Origin: a virus
Strand: one strand, 5' to 3'
Length of the DNA: 38,885 nt
IMG/VR virus record: IMGVR_UViG_3300033144_001637
Span: 1 to 38,885 of that record
The stretch's first letter is position 1, and each line of letters opens with the position of its first letter. The position numbers and the translations under genes are program-made. Positions 4,756 to 14,133 of this stretch are shown piece by piece. The notes under the pieces were generated by a model that was not told the origin of the DNA, searched no databases, and saw only the letters and a program-made list of their open reading frames with translations.

Positions 4756-6111
4756 ATGAAAAAGCTATTTTTAACATTACTTGTTAGCATCTGTCTTATG
4801 GCTTCGCCTGTCTTTGGTGCGGCCATAACGGACAAGTCCATCGGTGGGCTTATCGTGGTCCTGGAGGCTGGGGCCACCACTGAGATGCTTGTCGGTGGGG
4901 GCGGGGCCGGGAATATTCCTGTCTGGACTACGGTTACTGGAACGGGTGCGCCTGTTCTGGCAACTACTCCAACGCTGGTTACTCCTGTACTTGGAGCCGC
5001 AACGGGAACGAGCCTTGATATGTCTGGGACCATAAGTGGAAATCTTTTTACGCCTGATGCTGCGGATGGGGCCGATATCGGATCTGCTGCCCTGGAGTTT
5101 TCTGATATTTATCTTGCTGATGGTTCAATCATTAAGTTCCAGAACGATCAGAGTGTTACGCTAACAAGTAGTGCTACTGGATTGACCGGCAATCTTGATC
5201 TCCAAGGAAAGACCGTAACCGCTGAAGACTCTTTTAACCCGGATGCGGCCAATAGCGCAACGCTGGGAACTGTGGACCTTGAGTTTTCTGATTTATTCCT
5301 TGCTGCGGGTGGTATCATTTACGGTGAAGCCGATCAGGGTAATACCTTGACAAGTTCCGCTACTGAATGGACGGCGAATCTTGGGTTAACAGCTTTGGGT
5401 AACATTAACGCCGGGGCTGACGATGATATAGCGCATATTTATATTCATCATGCTGGGACACTGGTTTTTAATGATGCGTCAGACGATACGACCGTTACGC
5501 TTGGTCCTGTTGGGGATGGAACGACGAATCTTGGAATCACTGGCGGGTTGACTATTTCGGCGGCAAGCTCACTAACCGCTGGAGATTTCACATTAACTAA
5601 TGGTAATCTTGTGATCGGCACATCCGGCAAGGGGATTGATTTTTCGGCTACGGGTGATAGTGGTGGTATGACAAACGAATTATTGGATGATTACGAGGAA
5701 GGAACGTGGACTCCAGTATATACACCCCAAACTGGATCGTTTACAACAATGACAATGGAGGTTCTGACTGCGAAATATATCAAAATCGGAAGGCGTGTCT
5801 GGTTGATAGTGAACATTCAAACAGATAGTGTTGATGCGACTGGAGCATCCGGTGATCTCTTTATTAGTGGACTACCATTCACGGTAGCTAACCAATCGGG
5901 TAGCGGGTCGGTGACTGTTAATTACGCAAATTCCTGGGCTGGCGATCATCCGTTAAATGGCACTATGACTGATAATAGCACAAGTTTAAAGCTTAGATAT
6001 AGGACCTCCACTCCTGGTTCAGATCTTGATCTTGATGTTTCTGATTTGACAGCCGGGGTAACAGCTAACCAAAATAGAGTAATGATTATGGGGACATATA
6101 CAACCGAATAA
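4756..6111 (+). CDS. Tail fibre protein with a signal-peptide-like N-terminus and internal repeats
   Basis: The N-terminus is MKKLFLTLLVSICLMASPVFGAA. Internal repeats are GSAALEFSDIYLADGSIIKFQNDQSVTLTSSATGLTGNL and GTVDLEFSDLFLAAGGIIYGEADQGNTLTSSATEWTANL. The C-terminal tip has the DDYEEGTWTP motif common in fibre tip domains. AAGGAG SD. Confidence 0.6.
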   Translation: MKKLFLTLLVSICLMASPVFGAAITDKSIGGLIVVLEAGATTEMLVGGGGAGNIPVWTTVTGTGAPVLATTPTLVTPVLGAATGTSLDMSGTISGNLFTPDAADGADIGSAALEFSDIYLADGSIIKFQNDQSVTLTSSATGLTGNLDLQGKTVTAEDSFNPDAANSATLGTVDLEFSDLFLAAGGIIYGEADQGNTLTSSATEWTANLGLTALGNINAGADDDIAHIYIHHAGTLVFNDASDDTTVTLGPVGDGTTNLGITGGLTISAASSLTAGDFTLTNGNLVIGTSGKGIDFSATGDSGGMTNELLDDYEEGTWTPVYTPQTGSFTTMTMEVLTAKYIKIGRRVWLIVNIQTDSVDATGASGDLFISGLPFTVANQSGSGSVTVNYANSWAGDHPLNGTMTDNSTSLKLRYRTSTPGSDLDLDVSDLTAGVTANQNRVMIMGTYTTE

Positions 6112-8842: not shown

Positions 8843-9505
8843 TTAAAATAGTTTTTGTTGCCTGGTTTCTCTCTCAAACCTCTCACAAGCCGCCTTAAAG
8901 TATTCTTCGTCAATTTCGCATATATCCAGGTCATACCCCTCATGCCAGCAAGCTATAGCCGAGCTAAATGACCCGCCGTGTGTGTCTAAGATTGTTTGTC
9001 CGGGTTTGGCGTAGTTGGTGAGTAACCAGCGGTAGAGGGATACGGGTTTTTGGGTGGGGTGGATGCGGTGTTCTTTGGCGGCCATGTTTTGCTGAAGCAT
9101 ACCCTGCCATTTCCAAGTGAATTTTCTTACCGCTGAATTGAAAGATGTCCAAGCAAGTTCGCAATCTGCAAAATCGTTTTCTCCATTGTCTTTGTCCCAG
9201 ACAATAAAACAAGAGCTTGGTGGTAACTTAAAAAAGTTACCACCCCATATTATTTGGTTTTGTGAAATTCGTTGTAGTTCTAAAAAATATTCTTTATTTG
9301 ATATCTCTCTATCCCAATTTTTCGGAGTAAACTTCGTAGTTTCAGCCATACAACCCCTGGAATGATTTTTAAGCCCGTCCTCACCTATCCCATAAGGCGG
9401 GTCCACAATAGCCAGGTGATAATGGTCATCTGGCGCATCGGCCATTAGCCCCATACAATCCCCTCTATCCGCTCTAATCAGCGGCTTATGGGATAGCTCT
9501 ATCAT
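8843..9505 (-). CDS. DNA methyltransferase, N6-adenine/N4-cytosine type (beta class, DPPY)
   Basis: IVDPPYGIG (motif IV) sits near the N-terminus. An AdoMet motif I-like ILDTHGGSFSSAIA sits near the C-terminus. This is the permuted order of the PF01555-type enzymes. No cognate nuclease is nearby, so it is an orphan MTase. Confidence 0.75.
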   Translation of the reverse strand: MIELSHKPLIRADRGDCMGLMADAPDDHYHLAIVDPPYGIGEDGLKNHSRGCMAETTKFTPKNWDREISNKEYFLELQRISQNQIIWGGNFFKLPPSSCFIVWDKDNGENDFADCELAWTSFNSAVRKFTWKWQGMLQQNMAAKEHRIHPTQKPVSLYRWLLTNYAKPGQTILDTHGGSFSSAIACWHEGYDLDICEIDEEYFKAACERFERETRQQKLF

Positions 9506-9507
9506 CT

Positions 9508-10266
9508 TTACACCCTCAATTTAACTTGAGTATCCTGATAAATCTTCAATCCAGGGGCTTCCCTCATTCCAGCCTTAACCGCCTCGTTGATCTTCTTCAT
9601 ATCCGGGGAGCAGAATTGACGCTCAACGGCCCCAGCGTCCACGACCTCGGCCTTCCAGGGCCGGGCCATAGTTACGGAGGCCCCGGACTCCCCCCTCGTA
9701 ACCTTATCAATCTGGGGGACTACAGGGGAGGGTAGATTGACAGTTTCAATCCCCTTTTCCTTGGCTTCCTTGTCAATGGCAGCTTGGAGCGCCTTGGCCG
9801 CCTCCTGGGCCTTCTTCTCTTTCTCTCGGCGCTCCAATTCTTGTTTAAGGGTGAACTCCGTGATCTTCTTCTTTAAGACGGCTTCGATCTTATTGATTAA
9901 ACCAGCCTTTGTTTTAGGGTTGGTGTCATAAAACGTCTTAGCCAATGAGTTGACGAATTTCACATACTTATTGGGTTTGTCCACGATGGACTTCCGGTTA
10001 ACTTCTAATTTCTTTCCAAGGGTGACGGCCTCTCCCAGCATAACCACGGCGTTCTCCATGCCGGCTTGATCTAAGATCCGATATTCATTGGCTTGGTCGA
10101 GCATGGAGTTAACCGTCTCGAGATGGGCGTTGAACCGGGCCTTTACGGACTCCAGGTCGAAGGGATCTGAAACCTTACCGCTAACTATAGGTCCAACCAT
10201 GTCAGCACATTCCGCTTCCGTCATAGCTTCCCCTTCTGGTATGGTGTCTCCATCGAATAATCCCAT
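9508..10266 (-). CDS. Coiled-coil protein, Gp157-like (recombination-module accessory)
   Basis: I prefer the ATG at 10266 (MGLFDGD), which has GGGAGGAAG upstream and a TGATG overlap with the upstream gene. It has a long central K/E/A-rich coiled coil. The C-terminal WKAEVVDAGAVERQFCSPDMKKINEAVKAGMREAPGLKIYQD resembles the Siphovirus Gp157 family tail. Confidence 0.4.
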   Translation of the reverse strand: MGLFDGDTIPEGEAMTEAECADMVGPIVSGKVSDPFDLESVKARFNAHLETVNSMLDQANEYRILDQAGMENAVVMLGEAVTLGKKLEVNRKSIVDKPNKYVKFVNSLAKTFYDTNPKTKAGLINKIEAVLKKKITEFTLKQELERREKEKKAQEAAKALQAAIDKEAKEKGIETVNLPSPVVPQIDKVTRGESGASVTMARPWKAEVVDAGAVERQFCSPDMKKINEAVKAGMREAPGLKIYQDTQVKLRV

Positions 10267-10558: not shown

Positions 10559-11008
10559 TCATCGTGCCTTGACTGCTTCCGTGAAATCTTTGAAATAGCC
10601 AAGGTATTTCCGTTTATGGTCTACTTGGATGTCGGCTCCCCATTTATCATGTTGGGTGTGCCAATAAACTCCAGTGACCCCGCTAATATTGTCCTTGCGC
10701 TGCTTGCTGTTCCGGGTATTACATTGCGCTGATACATGGCGAAGGTTTACCCATCTATCATCGTCTCTTATCCGGTTAATGTGATCCATTTGATTTTCGG
10801 GAAAATATCCCTCCATGTATAACCAGGCCAAACGTGAGGCGAGATATTTTTTACCATCAAGCCGAATCCGCCTGTAACCCTTTACGTTTACGCCTCCACC
10901 CAGGTCTCTCGCCGCATACCTTCCCCTTGAGATCTTCCAGGTGAAAATCCCCGTTATTGGGTTGTAATCCAAGAGTTCTTTGAGCCTATCCTGGGTCAGC
11001 TTACCCAT
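10559..11008 (-). CDS. HNH homing endonuclease with an AP2-type DNA-binding domain (copy 1, ends at an in-frame TGA)
   Basis: DHINRIRDDDRWVNLRHVSAQCNTRN is the HNH_3-type catalytic motif. SGVTGVYWHTQHDKWGADIQVDHKRKYLGYF is an AP2 domain. It is a paralogue of 17579..18106. Confidence 0.8.
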   Translation of the reverse strand: MGKLTQDRLKELLDYNPITGIFTWKISRGRYAARDLGGGVNVKGYRRIRLDGKKYLASRLAWLYMEGYFPENQMDHINRIRDDDRWVNLRHVSAQCNTRNSKQRKDNISGVTGVYWHTQHDKWGADIQVDHKRKYLGYFKDFTEAVKAR

Positions 11009-11574
11009 TATTTGCCTCCACTATTAAAATATTTCCAGGTTGTTAGTGCTGCTAAGAAAACTGCAAAAGCTGTATTTATACTTTGCGTATACTCAACCAT
11101 TTTTGCAGCCTTGCCTTTGGGGTGGAGCATCACCGCCGCCGCCCTCTCTACCCTCATACCATCGGGTAAGCCACCATGCTTATCTACCAAGTGGCAATAG
11201 GACGCAATTTGAAGGGGCCAGGTTTTAGATTCACTAACTGGACTTTTCCAATCCAAAACAACCGCTGAGGGGTTGCCTTTAAGGATCAAACAGCAATCAG
11301 GGTGCCCATGGAATCCATGACAATCGCAAGCAAGCTCTTCCTCTACCAGGATCACCTTATCGACCATAATATCCGCCCATCTCTTAAAGCTGTCAAACCT
11401 GGGTTGAGCCTCATCGTCCAGCTTAGGGACCCATAACCCTAAAAGGTGCGCGGCTATGGCTCCATGTATCCTCGTCCCTCGTTCCGCTGCATGGCGCAGG
11501 ACTTCCGGGGGTATCCTGGAAAAGTCAGCGTAGGGGCTTAGGACTGTGGTTGAGCTTGGATTTGGGTTATCCAT
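11008..11574 (-). CDS. PD-(D/E)XK exonuclease (lambda Exo / YqaJ / Cas4-like recombination nuclease)
   Basis: GTRIHGAIAAH, then GHPDCCLIL...VVLDWKS (D ... D-x-K), then a QIASYCHL-type C-terminal helix. It lies in the same operon as the RecT-like gene. Confidence 0.65.
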   Translation of the reverse strand: MDNPNPSSTTVLSPYADFSRIPPEVLRHAAERGTRIHGAIAAHLLGLWVPKLDDEAQPRFDSFKRWADIMVDKVILVEEELACDCHGFHGHPDCCLILKGNPSAVVLDWKSPVSESKTWPLQIASYCHLVDKHGGLPDGMRVERAAAVMLHPKGKAAKMVEYTQSINTAFAVFLAALTTWKYFNSGGK

Positions 11575-11997
11575 ATTATCTTTCTCCGTAAAAGATAACC
11601 CTGGCAGAGCAACCGTCCAAGAAACAGACCCTTCCGACTGCTTGGCGATTGATACCAGGGTCCCCGCCCCGCCGATCTGCTGACCCTTCGCTTATTGTGT
11701 CGGGTTCTGAGTGTCGAACGGGGCAGGCGGTCACTAAGCTCAAATGTGAGGGCGGAGTGGGTTGATGGTGGGCGTTAGCATCCCTAACGCCTCTTTTCTT
11801 GTGAACCGGCACAAGGAGGTGAACCATCTTTTCTCCGCCTGGACCCACAGGAACAAGAACAACACTCAGACTCCGCGGAGGAGTTTTGAGTATGCTGCTT
11901 TTGAAGGATTGCTCCCGCCACCTTGCGGCTCCATCACGGTGAGCGAAGTTTGTTTCCTGGGGGTTCATATTACCTCACATTTCAATTTAGCGAATGA
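11575..11997 (-). ncRNA. Candidate structured RNA or other non-coding element (GC-rich spacer between the MTase and exonuclease genes)
   Basis: This roughly 420-nt gap is by far the largest in a tightly packed operon. It has many nested complementary segments (see findings). The only ORFs across it, one on each strand, have R/P/H-rich, junk-like translations. Confidence 0.35.
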
Positions 11998-12996
11998 TTA
12001 ATATTTAAGATTTTTTATCGCTTGCATTATCGGCACTACAACTTGAGGGACTATGGCGTTTCCGAGTGATTTAAGTCGGTCCACCCGAGAGGGTATCCCA
12101 TGAGCCACTCGACCCATGTTGGGTTCAACTGTCCACCATCCGGGTGAGAACGGTTCAAGTACATATAAGGATGATGTTCTGATTCCTTCCCTCCCCTTAG
12201 TCCGTTTGCCGCTGAAGGAGTCGGCCACAACTTTGTTTCCCTCACTTGATCTTGTAGTCTCAGACTGTGGTGCATTCCTGATGGACGTTTCAGCTTGTTC
12301 TCTGCTAAATATGCCAGCATTTCCTTTGATGCTGTTCCCCCTGCACAAGTGTCCGGTGTGAGCCACAATCCAGACCCGATCCCGTCTGTGCGGGGCGTTT
12401 TGGGCGCAAGCTGGAATAATAAACGCTTGTGTGGCGTAGCCTTGATCTTCCAGGTCAGAAAGCACCGTGTCGAGTGCCATATTGACGATTCCAGCAACAT
12501 TCTCGCCAATGACCCAACGGGGCCGGACTGCCTTAATAACCTCAAACATTTCCGGCCAGAGATAACGGTCATCTTCCTTGCCTCTTCGCTTCCCGGCGAC
12601 ACTAAAACCTTGACAGGGGAATCCCCCTGTGAGAAGATCGATATTTGTTGAGGTATTTTTTGGATAGGAATATTCCCTTTTTCTATTGCCTTCACAGCTT
12701 TGATTAGTTTGGCTTGACCATCTACTCCCTGATTGCTTTTTATCCTCGGGCTGTTCCCCTTCCATTCCACTTCTCGAACTACATCTATTGTGTCGGTTGC
12801 CTGTGGTGTAGGCCAAAATGTTATTGACATCTCTCACATCCTCCACGATAGGTACATCAGGCCAATGTTTCCTGAGTACCTTCTGACAAAACTTATCCTG
12901 TTCAACAAAACAAACGACTTCATGTTCCTCCCCCCATACGGTTCGAGCGGCAAGGGCGAACCCTCCTATCCCTGAAAAAAGATCTAAATGTTTCAT
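11998..12996 (-). CDS. DNA (cytosine-5)-methyltransferase
   Basis: The full motif set is present in order: DLFSGIGGF (I), GGFPCQGFS (IV), GENVAG (VI), QNAPHRRDRVWIVA (VIII), RVDRLKSLGNAIVPQV (X). It is the first gene downstream of the leftward promoter. Confidence 0.85.
   Translation of the reverse strand: MKHLDLFSGIGGFALAARTVWGEEHEVVCFVEQDKFCQKVLRKHWPDVPIVEDVRDVNNILAYTTGNRHNRCSSRSGMEGEQPEDKKQSGSRWSSQTNQSCEGNRKREYSYPKNTSTNIDLLTGGFPCQGFSVAGKRRGKEDDRYLWPEMFEVIKAVRPRWVIGENVAGIVNMALDTVLSDLEDQGYATQAFIIPACAQNAPHRRDRVWIVAHTGHLCRGNSIKGNAGIFSREQAETSIRNAPQSETTRSSEGNKVVADSFSGKRTKGREGIRTSSLYVLEPFSPGWWTVEPNMGRVAHGIPSRVDRLKSLGNAIVPQVVVPIMQAIKNLKY
12051..12830 (-). CDS. 259-codon ORF nested in the +1 frame of the C5-MTase gene, with WPTP and EWLMGYPLGWT motifs (possible overprinted gene)
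   Basis: The frame is open for 259 codons inside another gene. The ATG at 12830 is preceded by GGAGGA (12839..12844) with an 8-nt spacer. The translation contains FWPTPQATD, LWLTPDT, LWPTPSAANG and LNPTWVEWLMGYPLGWTDL. Confidence 0.4.
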   Translation of the reverse strand: MSITFWPTPQATDTIDVVREVEWKGNSPRIKSNQGVDGQAKLIKAVKAIEKGNIPIQKIPQQISIFSQGDSPVKVLVSPGSEEARKMTVISGRKCLRLLRQSGPVGSLARMLLESSIWHSTRCFLTWKIKATPHKRLLFQLAPKTPRTDGIGSGLWLTPDTCAGGTASKEMLAYLAENKLKRPSGMHHSLRLQDQVRETKLWPTPSAANGLRGGKESEHHPYMYLNRSHPDGGQLNPTWVEWLMGYPLGWTDLNHSETP

Positions 12997-13049
12997 TACA
13001 TTTCAGTCTATAAATTGTTGACGTTTACTATTCGTTAATCTTGGTCTGA

Positions 13050-13078
13050 AGTATAGACGATAAAGAATAGTTTGTCAA
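13050..13078 (-). promoter_or_regulatory. Leftward sigma70-type promoter for the early minus-strand operon
   Basis: On the minus strand: TTGACA (13078..13073), a 17-nt spacer, then TATACT (13055..13050), about 55 nt upstream of the MTase ATG. Confidence 0.6.
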
Positions 13079-13155
13079 GCAAAATCTTTCACTTTTTCAT
13101 ATAAATCGTAATTCACTAATATATTCAAACCCTTAAAACAAGTTAAAAAAAAGAC

Positions 13156-13185
13156 TTGACATTTAAATTTTAGACGTGATACCTT
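13156..13185 (+). promoter_or_regulatory. Rightward sigma70-type promoter (extended -10) for the HTH regulator / replication operon
   Basis: TTGACA (13156..13161), an 18-nt spacer containing TG (13177-78), then TACCTT (13180..13185). It is followed by AAAGGAG and the ATG at 13207. Confidence 0.45.
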
Positions 13186-13206
13186 TCGCACAAAGGAGAC
13201 TACACA

Positions 13207-13419
13207 ATGAATTATAGGAAAACTTTAAAACTCAATCAGGCAAAAGTGAAGGCGGAGATGAAAAGGCAGGGGTTGTCTTATCAGGACCTCGGAGATAAGC
13301 TCCATATCTCCAGACAGGCAGTTGGTTACTATTTCTACAATAAGCCAGCCCTGTCTATGAGAACAGTATCGAGGTTGGCCTGGGCGCTTAACTGCGATCC
13401 TAAAGATCTGTTAATTTAA
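13207..13419 (+). CDS. XRE/Cro-family helix-turn-helix transcriptional regulator
   Basis: The 70-aa protein has QGLSYQDLGDKLHISRQAVGYYF, a classic HTH_3 motif. It is the first gene of a divergent promoter region. Confidence 0.75.
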   Translation: MNYRKTLKLNQAKVKAEMKRQGLSYQDLGDKLHISRQAVGYYFYNKPALSMRTVSRLAWALNCDPKDLLI

Positions 13420-13443
13420 GGTTCAACCTTGAAAGGACTCTCG

Positions 13444-14133
13444 ATGGAAAAGGGTTTTGTTAAGCTATCCCGCAACCTACTAAACAATCGAATGTGGTTG
13501 GCCGAGCCTTTCACAAGGGGGCAGGCCTGGGTCGATATGTTTTCATTGGCAAATCATAGGGATGGATACATCCGTAAAAGGGGTGTAAAGGTGGTGGTTA
13601 AGCGGGGTCAATTAGGGTGGTCAGAAAGGGCGTTAGCGGAACGCTGGAAGTGGTCAAGAGGGAAGGTTAGACGGTTTTTAAATGAATTAAAAAAAGACGA
13701 AAATATAGTACCACAAAAATCAAACGTAACTACCTTAATTACCATAACTAATTACGACGAGTACCAGGGATACGGACCACAAACAGTACCACAGACGGAC
13801 CACAAACAGTACCAGAACAAGAATGATAAGAAAGATAAGAAGAAAGAAAGAAGAGATAAGAAAGAAAATTTTAAGCCTCCAATGGTCGAAGAAGTTGTCT
13901 CGTATTTCACCTCTAAGGGTTATTCTGAAAAAGCAGCCCGTAAGGCCTACGATTTTTACGATACTGCCAACTGGCACGACTCAAGGGGAAATAAAGTTAG
14001 AAACTGGAAACAGAAGATGATCGCTGTTTGGTTTAAGGATGAAAACAAACAGGGGATGTTTAAAACAGGCAATCGGATGGAAGACCAAAACATTGAAGCT
14101 GCAAGGCAATTTCTTCAAGGGGGTGCGCCATGA
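13444..14133 (+). CDS. Replication initiator / replisome organiser (winged-helix N-terminal domain, DnaD-like C-terminal domain)
   Basis: I prefer the ATG at 13444 (AAAGGA SD) over the track TTG at 13429. The N-terminal part has RGQLGWSERALAERWKWSRGKVRRFLNEL. The C-terminal part has VVSYFTSKGYSEKAARKAYDFYDTANWHDSRGNKVRNWKQKM, typical of phage replication-organiser C-termini. A K/D/E-rich linker contains the iterons. Confidence 0.6.
   Translation: MEKGFVKLSRNLLNNRMWLAEPFTRGQAWVDMFSLANHRDGYIRKRGVKVVVKRGQLGWSERALAERWKWSRGKVRRFLNELKKDENIVPQKSNVTTLITITNYDEYQGYGPQTVPQTDHKQYQNKNDKKDKKKERRDKKENFKPPMVEEVVSYFTSKGYSEKAARKAYDFYDTANWHDSRGNKVRNWKQKMIAVWFKDENKQGMFKTGNRMEDQNIEAARQFLQGGAP
13772..13814. repeat. 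Two 20-nt direct repeats (candidate ori iterons) followed by a purine/A-rich tract
   Basis: ACGGACCACAAACAGTACCA occurs at 13772..13791 and 13795..13814, a 23-nt period. It is followed by GAACAAGAATGATAAGAAAGATAAGAAGAAAGAAAGAAGAGATAAGAAAGAAAATTTT. Confidence 0.5.

Follow-up and report, generated by a model that had tools for sequence, protein, structure and literature searches.

The virus record IMGVR_UViG_3300033144_001637 was analyzed over its whole length of 38,885 bp, which is called the window here. It is a complete virus record with direct terminal repeats. On its minus strand, the listing of open reading frames (ORFs) gives a C5-cytosine methyltransferase gene, a segment of 423 nucleotides (nt), an exonuclease gene, an HNH-AP2 endonuclease gene and other early genes, in this order. 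The segment, which contains an ORF of 130 codons (ORF130), is the subject of this study. As RNA, its minus strand has a minimum free energy (MFE) of -170 kcal/mol, compared to -135.8±6.8 kcal/mol in dinucleotide shuffles (z -5.06), and 0 of 100 shuffles were equally stable. We tentatively consider the segment a lineage-specific, translated orphan ORF with a selected mRNA fold, an ORF-wide unit that would gate serial translation from the methyltransferase over ORF130 to the exonuclease; this reading is possible, if somewhat short of probable. The features of the locus are as follows.

11575..11997, minus strand: whole folded module, 423 nt, filling the gap from the methyltransferase stop to the exonuclease start
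11576..11968, minus strand: 130-codon orphan ORF (ORF130) with ATG at 11968-11966 and TAA at 11578-11576, from the ORF listing
11973..11976, minus strand: GAGG Shine-Dalgarno (SD) sequence of ORF130, 4 nt ahead of its ATG
11762..12001, plus strand: 79-codon ORF, from the ORF listing
12996-11998, minus strand: C5-cytosine methyltransferase gene (Pfam PF00145, 1.5e-37; phrog_363, 1.6e-76)
12000-11998, minus strand: methyltransferase stop codon TAA, read from the sequence
11574-11008, minus strand: exonuclease gene of the PD-(D/E)XK type (phrog_298, 1.1e-19)
11574-11572, minus strand: exonuclease start codon ATG, read from the sequence
13050..13078, minus strand: sigma-70-like early promoter, TTGACA, 17 nt, TATACT, 11/12 matches in a consensus scan

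A preliminary description of this DNA had given the same layout, with a gap of about 420 nt and ORFs of 130 codons on the minus and 79 codons on the plus strand, and both the sequence and the ORF list agree with it. It had also called the gap GC-rich. An enrichment exists, but it is only modest: the G+C content is 53% overall and 58.5% for 11600-11799, compared to ~45-50% in the neighbouring genes.

Transcription from a strong early promoter had been assumed as well. The 11/12 sigma-70-like site does lie upstream, and no terminator-like site was found by the consensus scan on the minus strand from this promoter (13078-13050) down to 10900. Judging from these consensus matches, the segment should be transcribed within an early polycistronic RNA along with the methyltransferase and exonuclease genes. 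At the borders of the segment, the scan of 10900-13500 revealed neither promoter-like nor terminator-like sites on the minus strand. Because a promoter and a terminator of its own are absent, the segment is regarded as a part of the polycistronic early transcript and not as a discrete RNA gene. Of the earlier proposal of a candidate structured RNA, the structure and its autonomy in a larger context are supported, whereas the discrete RNA gene is not.

Stability and extent of the predicted fold

The fold of the segment is a real and statistically robust feature. Its ensemble is well defined, with a diversity of 52.7 compared to 107.8±22.3 in shuffles. In a fold of 1.2 kb of surrounding sequence (11175-12400), 147 of the 147 segment pairs were kept and 0 pairs crossed position 11575 or 11997; most segment helices have pair probabilities of at least 0.9 there. 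Four sub-domains are significant individually by their shuffle z values (11993-11731, -5.57; 11840-11751, -4.80; 11729-11663, -3.09; 11662-11598, -4.51). The comparison of folding energy with shuffled controls, suggested in the preliminary description as a check, thus speaks clearly for the structure, with a z of -5.1 for the whole and of -3.1 to -5.6 for the sub-domains. The predicted structure is composed of the following parts.

11731..11993, minus strand: domain 1, 263 nt, z -5.57, with inverted repeat I1 (21 nt, 81% complementary)
11993-11987 / 11737-11731 and 11982-11974 / 11750-11742, minus strand: closing helix of domain 1, ~18 bp, pair probabilities 0.97-1.00
11751..11840, minus strand: domain 1b, a three-way junction, z -4.80, pair probabilities 0.95-1.00
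11663..11729, minus strand: domain 2, a hairpin with a 10-bp G+C-rich basal stem (11727-11718 / 11672-11663), z -3.09, probability 0.95
11597..11662, minus strand: domain 3, a long imperfect hairpin of ~25 bp, z -4.51 on the minus strand compared to -2.61 on the plus strand
11564..11601, minus strand: junction hairpins at the exonuclease start, inverted repeats I10 and I11, two mutually exclusive stems

Domain 1b is built from the stems 11839-11833 / 11757-11751 and 11828-11823 / 11769-11764 and the hairpins 11815-11798 and 11791-11771, with a single-stranded UCACCUC at 11822-11816. In domain 3, pair probabilities are 0.91-1.00 in three of the four stems and 0.61 in the apical 4-bp stem. All helices that had been picked out by eye are present, with two coordinates to be shifted by one (GGCGGAG lies at 11839..11833 and GATGGT at 11828..11823). 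The geometry of the suggested pseudoknot is also correct, as a pairing of 11870-11860 with 11716-11706 would cross the stem 11727-11719 / 11671-11663. Of the two, the minimum-energy fold contains the stem 11727-11719 / 11671-11663, with 11870-11860 in a local pairing.

High self-complementarity, which had been described for the region, applies to the nested whole, which exceeds the shuffles (z -5.06), but not to single stems. The longest Watson-Crick/G-U stem has 12 bp compared to a shuffle mean of 11.1 (P 0.29), and stems of at least 7 bp are moderately enriched (78 compared to 56.5±8.5 in dinucleotide shuffles, P 0.01). Single helices are unremarkable; the nested whole is beyond chance. For ORF130, a synonymous-codon shuffle was applied as well, which swaps codons only between positions with identical amino acids. 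This treatment costs the fold ~29 kcal/mol (z -4.9), compared to z values of -0.15, -0.03 and -0.9 for three neighbouring genes. Since the synonymous-codon shuffle weakens the fold, the nucleotide arrangement appears to be tuned to pair, whatever the frame encodes.

In a scan of the whole window, ranked by residuals of MFE on GC content and not by shuffle z-scores, windows over the segment take place 1 on the plus strand and places 4 and 5 on the minus strand. Apart from the segment, 9113-9623 on the minus strand is among the most structured regions of the window; it comprises the 5' part of an N6-methyltransferase-like gene and the preceding junction (z -3.6, synonymous-codon shuffle z -3.2). 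Within domain 1b, a 9-mer CACCTCCTT at 11813-11821 on the minus strand is partly single-stranded in the three-way junction. Its letters are exactly those of the anti-Shine-Dalgarno sequence, the consensus 3' end of 16S rRNA in bacteria. The chance of this exact 9-mer in 423 nt is ~0.002, for an observation made post hoc.

The transcribed (minus) strand is favoured for the fold, weakly and not decisively: the RNA z of the segment is -5.06 on the minus and -3.86 on the plus strand, and domain 3 is better by 10 kcal/mol on the minus strand. These values bear on an element that would act as DNA, in single-stranded or cruciform form. It might, for instance, be a signal for priming or single-strand initiation, or a hot spot of recombination next to the exonuclease/RecT-like module. 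Folding with DNA parameters is significant for both strands (z -3.98 and -4.09), and G-U usage is almost symmetric between them, as would suit such an element. However, its RNA z is better on the transcribed strand, where domain 3 gains its 10 kcal/mol, iterons or repeated short motifs are absent, the iteron array at two methyltransferase relatives (L003/L004, see below) looks quite different, and the open frame would be left unexplained. We consider a DNA-level role most improbable.

A second rival uses the plus strand, on which two sites were found by consensus scan.

11550-11579, plus strand: weak promoter-like site, 9/12 positions
11770..11802, plus strand: terminator-like hairpin and T-rich tail CTTTTCTTGT, 9 pairs, the same hairpin as 11791-11771

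Together they could delimit an antisense small RNA of ~215 nt that would oppose the 3' half of ORF130, comparable to the oop RNA of phage lambda. Both sites occur in the right order and orientation, and the hairpin is G+C-rich, 8-9 bp long and paired with probability 1.00. But the promoter matches at 9 of 12 positions only, the numbers of promoter-like and terminator-like sites in the region are no higher than in shuffles (2 terminator-like sites compared to 2.8±1.6), the plus strand folds less well as RNA and only half of the structured stretch would be explained. An antisense RNA is very unlikely on this evidence, and even taken jointly with the DNA-level element it stays improbable.

The 130-codon frame, its junctions and its product

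The preliminary description had seen no convincing gene in the gap. This view does not hold for ORF130. Among 5,000 dinucleotide shuffles, 0.28% have a sense-strand ORF of at least 130 codons (P 0.0028; P 0.0054 for six frames) and 3.8% a stop-free run of this length. ORF130 starts 30 nt downstream of the methyltransferase stop behind an SD sequence, and its stop lies 1 nt ahead of the exonuclease ATG in a TAA-T-ATG junction. Junctions were counted over 19 relatives with a determinable exonuclease start and enough upstream sequence. In 17 of the 19, the exonuclease start overlaps the stop of a same-strand upstream frame or lies at most 7 nt from it, and one more has a 23-nt gap. Because 17 of 19 relatives show such a junction, a translated ORF ending at the exonuclease start is the norm of the family. 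The codon score of ORF130 resembles that of its neighbours (z 1.5 against shuffles, P 0.06; 1.1-1.8 for early neighbours that are certain genes). It is uninformative, since frame +1 and one antisense frame score equally; the raw codon log-odds of -0.062 is lower than in all 26 reference genes.

The last ~30 nt of the segment (11575..11605, minus strand, CCAGGG...TTTTACGGAG) are common to the exonuclease relatives L025 and L026 in the same reading frame, and in the alignment the last ~5 codons of ORF130 are homologous to, and in frame with, the upstream ORF of L025. This leaves ~11606-11997 as the orphan part in the strict sense. In L025 (2112-2405), whose exonuclease is 57% identical, the upstream coupled ORF ends in an apparent small membrane peptide; upstream sharing with the window is limited to the last ~5 codons and the ribosome-binding site of the exonuclease gene.

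Both ends of ORF130 lie within predicted structure. At the start, three of the four SD bases sit in the closing helix 11982-11974 / 11750-11742 with a pair probability of 1.00, and the opening energy of the ribosome-binding site (13.2 kcal/mol) is the tied third-highest among 39 genes. At the exonuclease start, two forms exclude each other. In one, a 7-bp stem (11596-11590 / 11584-11578, probability 0.96) shows the exonuclease GGAG (11587-11584) at its loop; in the other, an 8-bp stem (11601-11594 / 11571-11564; -10.3 kcal/mol, z -2.6) encloses the exonuclease SD sequence and ATG. An internal in-frame ATG at 11827-11825 on the minus strand has a GGAG at 6-nt spacing, which is better than the annotated start, and would give a product of 83 amino acids. 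This GGAG (11825-11839 region) is paired in the basal stem of domain 1b.

The product of ORF130 had been called junk-like, and no homologue, family or predicted fold was found for it. A search of 5.8 billion clusters and an exhaustive HMMER search of 1.84 billion representatives gave only the match to itself, as ORF130 is present as a called gene in the public protein collection. ORF130 and eight other stop-to-stop frames had 0 matches in Pfam and PHROGs, the product had none in NCBIfam and PDB, its best score in the ESM Atlas (0.75) was at noise level, and tblastx of the segment found nothing elsewhere in the window or in any of the loci. The confidence of the predicted protein fold is very low (ESM predicted local distance difference test 0.30; AlphaFold2 36.8). 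In composition (R 10%, P 9%, H 5%) the product is basic and unlike the other proteins of the phage. By itself, the peptide may have hardly any function, or none.

Known RNA families were not detected either. With Rfam 15 at the gathering threshold, 0 matches were obtained in the whole window, including GOLLD, ROOL, OLE, HEARO, group I/II introns, ribozymes, riboswitches, 6S and RNase P. At E values up to 10, the sole match in 11400-12150 was a plus-strand hit of a C/D-box model within the methyltransferase gene (15.9 bits compared to a threshold of 70). ARAGORN found 0 tRNA or transfer-messenger RNA (tmRNA) genes in the window. The preliminary description had failed to match tRNA, tmRNA and RNase P by eye, and these scans gave the same result.

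The orphan product and the fold together raise the question of an untranslated structured RNA, a cis-acting or processed module of the early transcript whose open frame would be fortuitous. It could be a processing (RNase III/E) and stability element between cistrons, or a released stable RNA of ~260-420 nt acting as a protein sponge or anti-defence decoy. The fold statistics (z -5.06, sub-domains, ensemble and context fold), a product without homologue, family match or confident fold and with an R/P/H composition unlike the phage proteins, and the equal codon scores of frame +1 and one antisense frame would all fit. So would the near-continuous helix of ~25 bp in domain 3 and the closing helix of ~18 bp, as helices of these lengths are compatible with RNase III substrates. 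What this explanation leaves to chance is the frame itself, with a stop-free run in 3.8% and a full ORF in 0.28% of shuffles, a GAGG-N4-ATG start and an end 1 nt ahead of the next start, as in real genes of this phage and its relatives. In addition, a minus-strand promoter or terminator of its own, a minus-strand Rfam match even at E up to 10, and tRNA or tmRNA are absent. Under a pure RNA, the ORF and its gene-like junctions would be an unlikely coincidence of roughly 0.1-4%, and we regard this explanation as rather unlikely.

The opposite explanation is an ordinary orphan early gene for a small basic, probably disordered protein, for example in anti-defence or host takeover, with the fold as a functionless by-product of sequence history. 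Orphan genes are common in uncultured phages, and the gene-like anatomy, the non-random ORF, the gene call in the public collection and the neighbour-like codon score are what such a gene would show. One other coding region of this phage likewise has a good fold (z -3.6; synonymous-shuffle z -3.2). However, the z of -5.1 and the synonymous-shuffle z of -4.9 are well past the other genes tested, every sub-domain is significant alone, the fold ends exactly at the ORF borders and the protein has no predicted fold. A z of -5 that is confined to the ORF and lies partly in synonymous sites would be similarly unlikely here, and an ordinary gene is thus an unlikely explanation, too. A translated frame with a selected fold accounts for the ORF, the fold and the junk-like product alike.

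Searches for homologues and the relatives of the flanking genes

For the segment, no DNA homologue was found by blastn in phages and plasmids, nor in 18 methyltransferase-related and 24 exonuclease-related loci (42 loci), and scans of IMG/VR with exact 20-21-mers found none either. In 401 genomes from the order of a Desulfamplus metagenome-assembled genome (MAG), which carries a distant exonuclease relative (34% identity), only scattered matches of 18-35 nt at chance level were obtained. In seven DNA sequencing runs, the shared words all fall into the conserved 3' part of the methyltransferase gene (12012-12142) and none into the segment.

The nearest exonuclease relatives by protein (P0003-P0005) are 73-79% identical. 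Relatives at 36-70% identity from metagenomes and IMG/VR, as well as the Desulfamplus MAG, have other small genes upstream of the exonuclease; the methyltransferase is absent there and nothing resembles the segment. Conversely, methyltransferase relatives (30-62% best-segment identity) have neither the exonuclease nor the segment downstream. The nearest methyltransferase in the protein collection (P0024) has 59% identity, and its contig is not related to the exonuclease relatives.

Four other origins of the segment were considered and rejected. A conserved structured leader of the exonuclease gene does not apply, as folding is unremarkable in the corresponding 423 nt ahead of this gene in 18 relatives (z +1.7 to -2.6). 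Behind the closest methyltransferases of IMG/VR, the next 423 nt (L003 2305-2727, L004 5749-6171) do fold strongly (z -5.4 and -5.6). A methyltransferase-linked RNA family was rejected all the same, as the fold of L003/L004 consists of an intrinsic terminator and a TGCGTCAGT array, unrelated to the segment. A miniature inverted-repeat transposable element of the host is disfavoured as far as a degenerate 21-mer of the putative terminal inverted repeat can show, which was not found in 185,579 species genomes. An origin by internal duplication, from a diversity-generating retroelement or from iterons was rejected, because no repeats within the window were found except 8-12-nt two-copy repeats. 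In L003/L004, the classic intrinsic terminator is followed by at least 10 copies of TGCGTCAGT in both orientations; this array resembles one of iterons or operators and is located next to a primase/helicase-like gene.

Some further observations concern the flanking genes. A 259-codon frame (12051-12830, minus strand) is nested in the C5-methyltransferase gene and matches phrog_1008 "DNA methyltransferase" at 8.5e-30. By tblastn (up to 41% identity), it is kept together with the main methyltransferase frame in 13 related loci. L004 likewise has a 251-amino-acid ORF (4967-5722) nested inside a methyltransferase of 314 amino acids (4804-5748). The words shared by public metagenome contigs coincide with 12012-12142, the 3' part of the methyltransferase gene that is read in both frames. 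On the other side, the HNH-AP2 endonuclease gene (10559-11008, minus strand) sits between the exonuclease gene and a gene for a 264-amino-acid protein and is missing from relatives. In L021-L027 an HNH match is absent and the 264-amino-acid homologue directly follows the exonuclease, the two either overlapping or at most ~100 nt apart. This pattern fits a recent insertion of a homing endonuclease.

Proposed role in the early operon and comparison with known systems

From the fold statistics, the confinement of the fold to ORF130, the non-random ORF, the anatomy of its junctions and its orphan status, we infer that the segment would be translated and coupled to its neighbours and may have a regulatory role. 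It would be a lineage-specific insert, acquired with or beside the C5-methyltransferase gene, and both translated and under selection for RNA structure within an early-left polycistronic mRNA. The 130-codon frame would be kept open so that ribosomes can travel from the methyltransferase stop to the exonuclease start, while synonymous codon choice and placement would build an autonomous four-domain fold coinciding exactly with ORF130. A ribosome terminating at the methyltransferase stop (11998), 5 nt from the closing helix, would melt its 5' arm and allow re-initiation at 11968. Because the closing helix holds the SD sequence of ORF130, initiation there would be rare unless an upstream ribosome melts the 5' arm. 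Ribosomes arriving at the TAA (11578-11576) would in turn open the hairpins around the exonuclease SD sequence and ATG and re-initiate 1 nt downstream. In this way the fold would throttle and couple the expression of the downstream genes, and it may also stabilise the mRNA or be processed.

Several points weigh against a translated frame with a selected fold. The strand signal is nearly symmetric, with 15 compared to 13 G-U pairs between the strands and a z of about -4 (-3.98 and -4.09) for both strands with DNA parameters. The opening energy of the ribosome-binding site of ORF130 is high but no outlier, as terL has 13.2 kcal/mol and two genes have 17.8 and 18.3 kcal/mol, and its SD spacing, 4 nt, is among the shortest in this phage. 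Strong folds inside genes are not unique to the segment in this phage, as a minus-strand outlier of the scan (9201-9623, shuffle z -3.6) lies inside a certain gene. Homologues of the segment were found neither in phages and plasmids, the 42 loci, the 401 genomes and IMG/VR nor in sequencing runs, none of which contains the segment and among which no RNA runs are listed.

A related explanation shifts the weight to the RNA. The segment could be a new single-lineage ornate RNA of ~400 nt in the early operon, beside a self-protecting methyltransferase, that acts as RNA with the peptide as a passenger. It might, for instance, be processed to a stable RNA, or capture a factor of host defence or an RNA-binding factor as a decoy or sponge. 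Such a dual-constraint element would keep its translatability only for ribosomes to reach the exonuclease gene. We hold this explanation to be unlikely.

If the fold of the translated frame is functional, the segment would be a natural case of a phage-operon cistron that is shaped mainly at the RNA level and yet translatable. It would be informative about the way in which expression ratios are set in the densely packed early operons of phages, and about how many metagenomic "orphan proteins" are really RNA elements. It is also a warning for annotation, as the gene call is formally sound and the product has neither a relative among ~15 billion proteins nor a predicted fold. At present the segment, a singleton, is of more value as a clearly delimited candidate for a simple experiment than as a finding.

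Several known systems resemble the segment in part. In phage T7, single RNase III processing hairpins of ~50-60 nt lie between early genes, outside the ORFs. The segment, too, lies folded between cistrons of a polycistronic early mRNA, in a phage that is podovirus-like, and by their length domain 3 and the closing helix are candidate RNase III substrates. It differs from these sites as a 420-nt module that is itself an ORF. Dual-function RNAs like RNAIII/hld of Staphylococcus aureus and SgrS/SgrT of Escherichia coli have their own promoters and terminators, ORFs of 26-43 codons and known base-pairing targets. Like them, the segment is highly structured, a few hundred nt long and carries an ORF whose translation is presumed, but their short ORFs fill a small part of the RNA whereas ORF130 spans the segment.

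The large ornate RNAs GOLLD, ROOL and OLE of bacteria and phages, for which cryo-electron microscopy structures are available (PMC12286853), share with the segment a length of several hundred nt, a multi-domain architecture, a G+C enrichment over the surroundings and the association with phages. Their function was likewise unknown at first discovery. In contrast to these RNAs, which show covariation across many genomes, the segment is without Rfam match, conservation and transcription signals of its own, and it has a full-length ORF. In the RNA phages MS2 and Qbeta, long-range helices hide ribosome-binding sites, and initiation of one cistron depends on the ribosomes or the structure of another (PMC2978339 for Qbeta). 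The segment is similar in that the SD sequence of ORF130 lies in a helix closing 263 nt and the SD sequence and AUG of the exonuclease are flanked by alternative stems. MS2 and Qbeta are RNA genomes with experimentally mapped interactions, while here a coupling in the early operon of a DNA phage is deduced from predicted folds.

Another parallel is the ORF-centric mRNA structure of E. coli operons, where ORF-wide structure units that are insulated from neighbouring ORFs track translation efficiency (Burkhardt et al., 2017, eLife, PMC5318159). In the same way, the structured unit of the segment coincides with one ORF, and 0 of 147 pairs cross its borders. The E. coli pattern is a moderate, genome-wide statistical tendency, whereas the segment is a single extreme outlier (z -5) with a predicted fold, and its product looks non-functional. 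By the ORF-centric model (PMC5318159), the structure of the segment would be expected to set a low translation rate. The segment is best filed as a new, extreme example, so far a singleton, of a structured cistron in a phage operon.

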